Position numbers and translations under genes: made by a program | Sequence record: PV805632.1 | Length of the DNA stretch: 64,000 nt | Origin: a phage | Strand: one strand, 5' to 3' | Shown: one piece after another, positions 1-55,078 of the stretch | Layout of the letters: each line of letters opens with the position of its first letter | Numbering within the stretch: position 1 is the first letter of the stretch | The notes under the pieces: generated by a model | Database searches by the model: none | What the model saw: the letters and a program-made list of their open reading frames with translations, nothing else | Told to the model about the DNA's origin: nothing

Positions 1-95
1 TGGCTAGGGCTACACCCTTACACGTTAACTACCCCCCCCCCCCCCGGTATGTTGACTCATGGGTGTACTACCCTACCCCACCTTACACGTTACAC

Positions 96-115
96 GTTGC
101 TCCGCAACTTATGGA
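96..115 (+). promoter_or_regulatory. N4-type virion-RNAP early promoter: hairpin GTTGC-TCC-GCAAC followed by TTATGGA
   Basis: 5-bp inverted repeat with 3-nt loop plus TTATGGA; template strand reads 3'-CAACGAGGCGTTGAATACCT-5', one base off the N4 early promoter consensus as I recall it; about 40 nt upstream of the first ORF. Confidence 0.55.
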
Positions 116-2998: not shown

Positions 2999-3216
2999 TG
3001 TACTCAAACGATTATGGTATATGCCCAGTCTGTAAGAAAGGACGTGGAGTTGCCAATCATAAGCGTTGTAGTCGTATATTGCAGAAACAACGGAACCAGA
3101 AAGAATGGTCTAAGGTGCTGGAAAATCAGCATAAAGAAGAGAATCAACAAATGGCTGTTAGGGCATCTACTCAACGTATTCGCCGTATTAACTATATACA
3201 AGGATACCAAAAGTGA
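2995..3216 (+). CDS. small basic protein with CxxC/HxxC motif (73 aa)
   Basis: ORF track; ATGATG overlap with upstream stop. Confidence 0.45.
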   Translation: MMYSNDYGICPVCKKGRGVANHKRCSRILQKQRNQKEWSKVLENQHKEENQQMAVRASTQRIRRINYIQGYQK

Positions 3217-4755: not shown

Positions 4756-4775
4756 GGTGCTCCGCACCTTGTGGT
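4756..4775 (+). promoter_or_regulatory. N4-type virion-RNAP early promoter variant: GGTGC-TCC-GCACC + TTGTGG
   Basis: same hairpin geometry and TCC loop as 96-115 and 775-794, stem differs by compensatory changes; in the 48-bp gap upstream of the RNAP II genes. Confidence 0.5.
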
Positions 4776-53845: not shown

Positions 53846-55078
53846 TTAAAGACTACCCGGTACTGGGAGTTTAGCGAAATCTTCATCACTCATGGCGAGT
53901 GGGTTTACAATAGGTGTTGCTTTACGTGTAGCAGCCCGATTAAGGGAAGCTGCTTTAGCTTGCTCACTGTTAGCCAGAGTCTGCTTAGGTTGTGCTACTC
54001 GCACTACCGGCTGAACCACTGGTTTAACTGCTTGTACCGGTTCTGGCTTAGCTACTCGGTTAAATGCCCCCTGCTGTGCAAGGAGGTTACCGACGTGGTT
54101 ATAAGCCTGAATGAACGGAGTACCTACCGGAATCTGGCCTAACATCTGAAGACGGTTCACTTCGTTTGCAATGGTGTCATAAATACCATTCTCACGTTGT
54201 TCGTGAATAGTCTGGAGTAGGCCACGATTCTGGTAAAGAGCTTCTTTACTGGCAGCATCCCATGTCGAGCCGATAACACCTAATGTAGCTTGTCCTTCTT
54301 GAGTAGACTTTAAGTCGTCAATTTCGGTTGCAAAATCTGCTTCGGTGTCGGTAACACGGTGATTGCCACCCTGGTAGTTAATTTCCTCATCTGGGTTAAA
54401 GTCCAGAGGATCTGTACCAGAGTCTTTGAGCAACTTCTTAATGGCTTCTGGATTCTTTTTATCCAGGTCAATCAGGAAGGAAAGTTTATCCTCATCCATT
54501 AAACCGTTGTTCTGTAACATCAGCATTACCTTACGGTAAGGCTTCAGTTCTTGCATCTTACGAGTATAGTTAGCACCCATCTGCATCAGGCTAATGGCCT
54601 CCTCCGGTGAACGGGGAGTAATCACTTTGCCGTTAGCTTTAAAAGGAGCCATCAACTTCTCGTAACCTTCCTTATAGTTGAAGTCAGCAGGCAGACCTTC
54701 AGACTGTTTGCCTTCTTCTTTCTGTTCCTGGCCTAGTTCAGTAGTAGAAGGTTCAGCTTTAGTAATCGGCTCACCGTTACTATCAACTTCTGTGTCAACA
54801 ACTTTATCAACAACTTTATCATCAACTTTATCAGAAGTTAAAGAATTTGCTGAATCTTCTTCATCAGGTTCGGCTTCAGGGGGGGTTTCTTCGGTTGGTA
54901 GGTCTTCAACAGCAGGAGTGTCAACTTCTTCTTCAGGAGTCTGTACGCCGTTGGTTTCTGGGTTGTTCTGAGTGGAAGTATCTTCCTCAGCAATAATTGC
55001 TGGGGCTTCCATATTCAGAATCTCATCATCCGACATTGCGAGAATGTCGGAAGCTGTGGTTGCAGCTTCCGTAGTCAT
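53846..55078 (-). CDS. acidic structural-module protein, possible scaffold (410 aa)
   Basis: ORF track; strongly acidic N-terminal third; immediately upstream of the capsid gene. Confidence 0.4.
   Translation of the reverse strand: MTTEAATTASDILAMSDDEILNMEAPAIIAEEDTSTQNNPETNGVQTPEEEVDTPAVEDLPTEETPPEAEPDEEDSANSLTSDKVDDKVVDKVVDTEVDSNGEPITKAEPSTTELGQEQKEEGKQSEGLPADFNYKEGYEKLMAPFKANGKVITPRSPEEAISLMQMGANYTRKMQELKPYRKVMLMLQNNGLMDEDKLSFLIDLDKKNPEAIKKLLKDSGTDPLDFNPDEEINYQGGNHRVTDTEADFATEIDDLKSTQEGQATLGVIGSTWDAASKEALYQNRGLLQTIHEQRENGIYDTIANEVNRLQMLGQIPVGTPFIQAYNHVGNLLAQQGAFNRVAKPEPVQAVKPVVQPVVRVAQPKQTLANSEQAKAASLNRAATRKATPIVNPLAMSDEDFAKLPVPGSL

Follow-up and report, generated by a model that had tools for sequence, protein, structure and literature searches.

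The phage record PV805632.1, analysed here as one stretch of 64,000 nt read 5' to 3' (the window, numbered from its first base), carries near its start an uninterrupted run of 14 cytosines at 32–45, set between two copies of a 12-bp direct repeat, CCTTACACGTTA, at 16–27 and 81–92. As judged from alignment with relatives, this C14 is a length-expanded allele, against a modal length of 7, of a conserved A-C7-GGT box that lies about 30 bp inside the genome's left end. We favour, at a little short of an even chance, the reading that the box and its flanking repeats constitute a cis-acting element in the formation or handling of the invariant left terminus. Phages that bring their own RNA polymerase into the cell have N4 as their model, and the literature examined leaves two points about N4 unexplained, namely by what means its left end comes to be exact and what restrains the free leading end so that gyrase can supercoil it and fire the hairpin promoters. 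The A-C7-GGT box, at about 30 bp from the end and 50–60 bp from the first early promoter, P1, is a short and deeply conserved candidate element set among TACAC repeats.

The C-run, its repeats and their conservation

The run and the repeats are real, non-random and deeply conserved. Direct reading of the bases bears out the C14 that an earlier inspection of the same letters (the sequence-only reading) had reported, and it is the only homopolymer longer than seven in the window, the next-longest C-runs being two of six. Far from it, at 54879–54885, a G7 is the sole other homopolymer of at least seven. A repeat search (family D11) returned both copies of the 12-mer at 100% identity, and we estimate the chance of an exact 12-mer recurring inside 100 nt at ~3e-4. 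A third ACACGTT copy had been claimed at 92–99; the motif does stand there in tandem, at 85–91 and 92–98, the claimed copy being one base too long, and its second unit overlaps the left arm of a hairpin, GTTGC-TCC-GCAAC, at 96–108. TACAC occurs four times in the first 100 nt, as compared with an expectation of 0.086 (Poisson P ~2e-6), and this is the densest 100-nt stretch of TACAC in the window. The idea of a dispersed motif was dropped: neither the 12-mer nor its 8-mer core, CCTTACAC, is enriched elsewhere in the 64 kb, where together they gave three matches, two of them at this site.

To place the run among its relatives, 26 GenBank and IMG/VR sequences were assembled together with IMG/VR contigs retrieved by an exact 18-mer, metagenome contigs retrieved by gp1, the first early gene, and matches to a pattern of C-run and promoter core. 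About half of the matches to this pattern (C6, gap, promoter core) were due to chance and were discarded by eye, and close relatives made up most of what the gp1-based locus searches in IMG/VR and metagenomes brought in. In every true homologue collected the C-run stands at this same position without interruption. Among the 47 distinct contexts the tract is C7 in 30, C6 in five, C9 in five and C8 in two, with C10, C11, C12, C13 and C14 found once each, the window holding the longest. The length instability that the sequence-only reading had anticipated is thereby seen as a range from C6 to C14 among relatives, and it extends to genomes with identical flanks: behind an identical 100-nt right flank the tract may vary from C6 to C11, be C7 or C9, or be C7 or C12, and G7C has C7 where the window has C14 despite 97% identity. 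Neither a uniform length nor absence of the motif from related genomes, which that reading would have taken as a sign of no function, was found. Tract length is the fastest-changing character of the region. The differences fit slippage, sequencing error or both, and only reads can separate a real allele of 14 from an error of sequencing or assembly.

The box reaches well beyond close relatives. In N4 a C9 starts at base 32, the same coordinate as in the window, and is followed by TGT. Klebsiella phages of the genus Kaypoctavirus have C7, apart from one with C13 behind a wholly replaced spacer. Pseudomonas phage LUZ7, of another subfamily and with ends fixed by run-off sequencing according to its annotation, reads GGTACT-C7-GGTGGTG with the run at 29–35, and Achromobacter phage JWAlpha, of a third subfamily, has ACACA-C7-GGTGTC upstream of the promoter GACGC-TCC-GCGTC. 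Seven uncultured lineages add (A/T)A-C6/7-GGT(A/C/G) with CACAC or TACAC boxes on both sides. Thus the A-C7-GGT box spans three subfamilies (N4, LUZ7, JWAlpha) and seven uncultured lineages; it always lies upstream of the first hairpin promoter for the virion RNA polymerase (vRNAP), in most lineages 49–62 bp from the hairpin centre. When 15 lineages are compared with the tract as anchor, the most informative positions are the tract, A at −1 and GGT at +1 to +3, with 1.4–2.0 bits for A and GGT (GGT 1.6–2.0), and almost everywhere else in the flanks the value is below 1 bit; in the window this conserved 3' flank, GGT(ATGTTGAC), occupies 46–56. The box is also seen at ~3030–3120 on the minus strand of one more distant contig (L042, IMGVR_UViG_3300020383_000001), where AATA-C6-GGGG and ACCCTACCCCACCTTACAC are kept with no GCTCCGC-type hairpin nearby; therefore the box can occur without the canonical promoter core.

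The direct repeats fit the same picture. Only the 8-bp core (TTACAC) is conserved in relatives, among them the Enquatrovirinae, whereas identity over the complete 12-mer is private to the window genome; in most relatives the first copy reads CCTTACACTCAA. ACAC is found on the + strand 4–6 times per ~100 nt in 14 of the 15 lineages, and its complement 0–2 times. The repeats at 16–27 and 81–92 are therefore the local form of a conserved, strand-specific (T/C)ACAC box array. As a whole, the non-coding leader (1–151) is as conserved as the gp1 coding sequence behind it, with respective identities of 75% and 73% to N4, 77% and 71% to Klebsiella phage BaqKoxi and 62% and 56% to JWAlpha, and the next intergenic region is 55% identical.

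N4 (NC_008720, 1–115) is collinear with the window and 75% identical over the 151-nt leader. The two share TGG...GGGGCTACACCC..TTACAC, a C-run from base 32, the inverted copy GTGTA(GCC), CCTACCCCACC, the ACACGTT tandem, the hairpin GTTGC-T(T/C)C-GCAAC and TTATGGAC, followed by gp1. They differ in the 8-nt spacer before the tract, in the segment after it, in the run itself (C9-TGT in N4, C14-GGT in the window) and in the hairpin loop, which is TTC in N4 and TCC in the window. The nearest relative, G7C (HQ259105), is 97.4% identical over the first 1.5 kb and shares with the window its leader, the GGGTGTA inverted copy and the P1 stem, but has C7 in both deposited copies. Its second repeat copy differs by one substitution, giving CCTTACACCTTA; we had considered a different tandem duplication there (CCTTACA twice), which was rejected in favour of this single G-to-C change relative to the window. 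Further right, G7C carries extra genes, e.g. for an HNH endonuclease. By these comparisons the window carries the longest known allele of a conserved N4-type left-end element, the same element as in N4 and G7C with a longer run.

N4-like phages have the longest homopolymers among the phages compared by Fouts et al., up to 12 nt, and their significance was called unclear (PMC3670811). Beyond that general remark, our full-text literature search found the terminal C-run neither located nor explained, although the primary papers on N4 ends and promoters may discuss it. For practical purposes the box can be used as a landmark by which to orient and trim N4-like assemblies, and the C-run marks a hotspot at which records of therapeutic phages can be expected to show homopolymer errors or true heterogeneity of length.

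The left terminus and the early promoter P1

The window derives from a G7C-like Gamaleyavirus, an N4-like podovirus of the Schitoviridae: 84 phage records match it, with vB_EcoP_G7C as the best match (97.4% identity), and in the G7C record the terminal repeat is annotated as lying within the first 1160 bp. That the tract lies near a genome end, as had been supposed, is supported by the starts of deposited records and by published read-start pile-ups. Window base 1 aligns with base 1 of the records of N4, PD38 and PhAPEC7, as it does for many G7C-like records, and with base 2 of Mimir124 and 24-32N; the G7C record starts at the same place with its first six bases different. The Vibrio VCO139 record starts at a non-homologous end and was uninformative. 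In IME11, the pile-ups on (T)GTGGCTGGGG, TGTGGCTGG and TGGCTGGGG fall 0–2 nt upstream of window base 1, at an end that is labelled 'right' because that record is oppositely oriented, and the repeat measures 401 bp (PMC3896407). By homology, then, position 1 is the physical left terminus within 2 nt, as used by N4, G7C, IME11 and Mimir124.

In Mimir124 the annotated repeat, 'DTR (short)', is 403 bp long. When the boundaries of IME11 and Mimir124 are mapped by homology, the other edge of the repeat falls at ~410/411 of the window, inside gp1, and 1–410 on the + strand is the predicted left copy of an N4-type direct terminal repeat, a class with an exact left end and a length of about 390–440 bp; the right-hand copy lies outside the 64-kb window. 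The 12-bp repeats, which the sequence-only reading had offered as possible boundary elements of a terminal repeat, fall within it, its boundaries being at ~1 and, again by homology, at ~410. The predicted right boundary falls on TTCTGCAAAGAT at 398–411, the codons of the invariant residues F83-C84-K85-D86 of gp1, where constraints from coding and from end formation may overlap.

Assemblies that resemble permuted concatemers reveal what lies outside the left boundary. A conserved block ending in TGATAGCTATGTATGGCTGTAGTGGTG directly adjoins the repeat start, and conservation extends over ~50 nt to the left, as TTTTTGCAT..AAAA..TGATAGCTATGTATGGCT(A/G)(C/T)AGTGGTG followed by TGGC at the start of the repeat (e.g. 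L002 1205–1258; L034, L036, L071–L083). Distant lineages retain GATAG and, after N~18, CAGTGTTG immediately left of the cut. Because the sequence just outside the left boundary is conserved as well, the cut site is flanked by conservation on both sides. Inside the boundary, the leader ahead of the tract measures 28–33 nt in N4, the G7C-like phages, the Klebsiella phages, L066, L105 and LUZ7, and the tract starts 29–34 nt from the end in the same set; the deposited left ends of JWAlpha (L048, tract at 6–12) and JWDelta lie 5 and 12 nt before the tract, respectively. At the right-end junction of JWAlpha (L070), the leader that borders the annotated repeat on its outer side is rich in ACAC and looks like the true leader in a related contig, and the deposited termini of JWAlpha and JWDelta may be imprecise.

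The promoter hairpin of the sequence-only reading, at 96–108 and just downstream of the tract, is well supported by homology and covariation. It corresponds by position to P1 of N4, the first hairpin-promoter site of that phage, whose counterpart reads GTTGC-TTC-GCAAC. Promoters of vRNAP have a GC-rich heptamer centred at −11, inverted-repeat flanks of 5–7 bp around a 3-nt loop and conservation from −17 to +1 (PMC4496689). The window has a 5-bp stem, a 3-nt loop and the heptamer GCTCCGC (99–105); the loop, TCC here and TTC in N4 on the + strand, is GGA or GAA on the template, with a purine at its centre. Thirteen promoters of diverged lineages align without gaps through the hairpin and the initiation region. 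All 65 stem cells in this alignment are paired and three of the five pairs show compensatory changes, a covariation score reached by none of 500 shuffles, while controls slid along the alignment were 17–59% paired; TT(A/G)TGG is invariant downstream of all 13 hairpins. Two more vRNAP-type hairpins follow on the + strand, GACGC-TCC-GCGTC with TTATGGA at 775–787 and GGTGC-TCC-GCACC with TTGTGG at 4756–4768, and the three would be the three early promoters expected from N4.

Neither of these downstream promoters has a C-run nearby in the 64-kb window, and the run was therefore rejected as a generic element of vRNAP promoters, P2 and P3 having none. A scan for sigma-70-type promoters found no site in 1–150, and TTGAC at 52–56 was rejected as part of a promoter, no recognizable sigma-70 site being present there. 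The spacing between the TACAC boxes and P1 is interrupted in some relatives by 26-nt insertions containing a hairpin, in U1G (L014, 76–101) and in PE007 and PD205 (L015 and L016, ~392–417), and in one metagenomic lineage by an insertion of more than 100 nt (the insertion loci include L041, L056 and L084). These insertions look like miniature mobile or duplicated hairpin cassettes.

Possible roles of the box

A role at the genome end, rather than one shared by vRNAP promoters in general, is indicated by the absence of a C-run at P2 and P3, by the toleration of 26-nt insertions between the box and P1 in U1G, PE007 and PD205, and by the conservation beyond the left boundary. Tailed phages follow a last-in, first-out rule of packaging and ejection. 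The left terminus of N4-type genomes is single and accurate, their right termini are several (PMC5557969; PMC3896407), and the left end is injected first (PMC4496689). Because the left end enters first, the last-in, first-out rule makes it the end that is packaged last, and the exact left cut would be the termination cut. A terminase moving from right to left would then meet the G/C tract ~31 bp before this final, precise cut; a C count above ~6 would be tolerated, and the tract would drift upward by slippage.

Other phages offer partial precedents for such an element. In lambda, cosQ lies in the packaged DNA, a few tens of bp before the final cut. This termination subsite of 7 bp is highly conserved, and the precise terminal cut requires it (PMC4669245). 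By analogy, the C7 box would be like cosQ in size, in conservation and in position relative to an exact end, but there is no sequence similarity between them, the lambda ends are cohesive and without terminal repeats, and the length of cosQ is constant. T7 resembles the N4-type phages in being a podovirus with exact direct terminal repeats and transcription-driven entry of the left end first. Its left repeat (L113) has a C5-ATA-G5 palindrome at 26–38, then arrays of the heptamer CCTAAAG, i.e. short strand-specific repeats. The C-run of T7, ~26–30 nt from the left end, thus gives a similar layout without homology, and the heptamer differs from the N4-type repeats.

Several points weigh against a part of the box in end formation. 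Action of terminase at the box is postulated, and the direction of packaging in N4 follows from the last-in, first-out rule and is not stated in the literature examined. With 5 nt in JWAlpha and 12 nt in JWDelta between end and tract, the 30-bp distance is not universal unless these ends are imprecise. In JWDelta (L114, 11–21) the tract is itself interrupted, as CCCACCCCC, and N4 has TGT instead of GGT after the tract. A signal acting at a fixed distance should dislike an expansion of 7 bp, yet alleles of C9–C14 exist. Finally, the distance from box to P1 is fairly constant, at 49–62 bp, which leaves room for a role linked to the promoter.

Such a link is central to an alternative that we consider unlikely, in which an ejected protein (a domain of vRNAP or another ejection protein) or a host protein would bind the box and the TACAC array, which would so anchor the leading end and contribute to activation of P1. 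With about the same limited likelihood, the bound free end would let gyrase supercoil the short segment that has entered and thereby extrude the P1 hairpin, ~100 bp from the end. Activity of vRNAP promoters requires gyrase-dependent negative supercoiling, and the linear genome must be topologically constrained during injection, when its first ~500 bp enter first (PMC4496689); the literature examined names no anchoring element. In addition, the box always lies between the end and P1, in most lineages at the spacing given above, and across subfamilies it is found together with the conserved type of vRNAP promoter. On the other hand, P2 and P3 work without a box, though neither adjoins a free end; natural insertions in isolates and contigs, 26 nt long or longer than 100 nt, separate box and P1; and the binding of a protein is postulated. 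It is likewise conceivable, but in our judgement doubtful, that box and array form a family-wide leading-end element of the Schitoviridae, in which the vRNAP/ejectosome or the terminase would dock on the end that is first in and last packaged, with the C-run as a tunable spacer. A leading-end element, if true, would account together for the topological closure needed for gyrase-dependent promoter activation and for the exactness of the left end.

That the run has no specific function, being a slippage-prone relic tolerated in a non-coding leader, with or without the value of 14 being an error of sequencing or assembly, appears to us rather improbable. Identical flanks with differing tract lengths are also what homopolymer miscalls would give; the sources of the longer alleles are heterogeneous, among them an 'UNVERIFIED' record (PE007, C12) and metagenome assemblies; homopolymer errors in N4-like genomes needed correction by Fouts et al. 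(PMC3670811); and the interruption in JWDelta points the same way. A neutral run, however, would be broken by substitutions over such divergence, and here at least six uninterrupted Cs are kept at one place in the 47 contexts, across genera and subfamilies in which the spacers have been replaced. The modal length is, moreover, exactly 7 in lineages as distant as LUZ7, JWAlpha and G7C, and the leader is conserved as much as the neighbouring coding sequence.

We regard as distinctly improbable a role in replication or in duplication of the terminal repeat, whereby the terminal inverted repeats and the G-rich strand that has its 3' end at the terminus (G-run, GTGT, GGGG) would form a fold-back, a G-quadruplex or a pause site that serves in priming, in end protection or in copying the terminal repeat from concatemers. 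In phages of this type the terminal repeats are believed to arise by extension from staggered nicks (PMC5557969), and it is the G/T-rich strand that has its 3' end at the terminus. In several lineages the tract lies between the arms of an inverted repeat. In the window it is 7 bp long and was equalled in 69 of 2000 shuffles; in N4 and most relatives its place is taken by GGCTACAC(C)/(G)GTGTAGCC, with 9 bp in the ECBP1 type (equalled in 4 of 2000) and 8 bp in N4 (10 of 2000), while LUZ7 has 7 bp of other sequence and L066 and L108 have 7 bp. Against this, L112, L106, L103 and JWAlpha either lack a tract-spanning inverted repeat or have one no better than chance, and the inverted repeat, being significant in some lineages and at chance in others, was not adopted as a defining feature. 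Folds of single-stranded DNA over the first ~110 nt, computed for both strands of the window, ECBP1 and N4, were no more stable than shuffles (z −0.6 to −1.75); the only consistent fold in the three was the P1 hairpin, and the 3' terminus is unpaired in the predicted folds, which leaves self-priming unsupported. The segment 21–45 does have the most extreme G4Hunter-type score of the window, −2.32, but this depends on expansion to C14, and the potential is much lower with the usual C7, where a quadruplex would need distant runs and long loops. An Rfam scan of 1–1500 gave no match within 1–600 and three chance-level hits (E ~0.7) at 1099–1318.

A contingency (phase-variable) switch, in which gp1 and early-operon expression would be tuned through changes in C-run length, is very improbable. 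Length polymorphism between near-identical genomes is typical of simple-sequence contingency loci and is present among the close relatives here, and Fouts et al. speculated that polymerase slippage on long homopolymers might regulate expression in N4-like phages (PMC3670811). Against this, the tract lies outside the reading frames (gp1 starts at 152), outside any −35/−10 spacer, 1–150 having no sigma-70 hexamers for it to separate, and upstream of the −17 to +1 region recognized by vRNAP, and with 30 of 47 contexts sharing length 7 it has one strong modal length and no on/off frame logic.

Further features of the leader and gp1

All features of the leader are on the + strand. The terminal leader, at 1–31, holds TACAC boxes at 11–15 and 19–23 and the conserved block GGCTACACCCTTACAC; GGCTACA and CCCTTACAC are invariant in the alignment of 26 relatives, and the 8-nt spacer before the tract, 24–31, is variable in sequence. 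Downstream of the tract, GGGTGTA at 61–67 is the inverted copy of TACACCC (11–17), so that the tract sits in the loop of the 7-bp inverted repeat. A conserved C-rich block, CCCTACCCCACC, follows at 71–82 and is invariant in the alignment; the exact 18-mer that retrieved 17 IMG/VR stretches includes it, and the related TACCCACCCC is present in JWAlpha and L066. After it come the second direct repeat and the ACACGTT tandem (85–98), with TACAC boxes at 84–88 and 91–95, the second unit of the tandem entering the promoter stem. N4 has the same tandem, and most G7C-like relatives have ACACGTTACACATGC there. Beyond the P1 hairpin (stem GTTGC/GCAAC, loop TCC), the initiation region TTATGGA occupies 109–115, and if the loop centre is taken as −11, following the rule for vRNAP promoters (PMC4496689), +1 is predicted at about G113.

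The first early gene, a gp1 homologue at 152–475 whose G7C counterpart is annotated as gp1, gives context and is not part of the element; its product is 64% identical in amino-acid sequence to N4 gp1. ORF01 of LUZ7 was considered as a gp1 homologue and rejected. Directly after gp1, at 477–507, the window has a perfect hairpin of 12 bp with a 3-nt loop (AATAGGAGGCTC...GAGCCTCCTATT), which resembles a terminator on the minus strand and is probably a bidirectional or early one.

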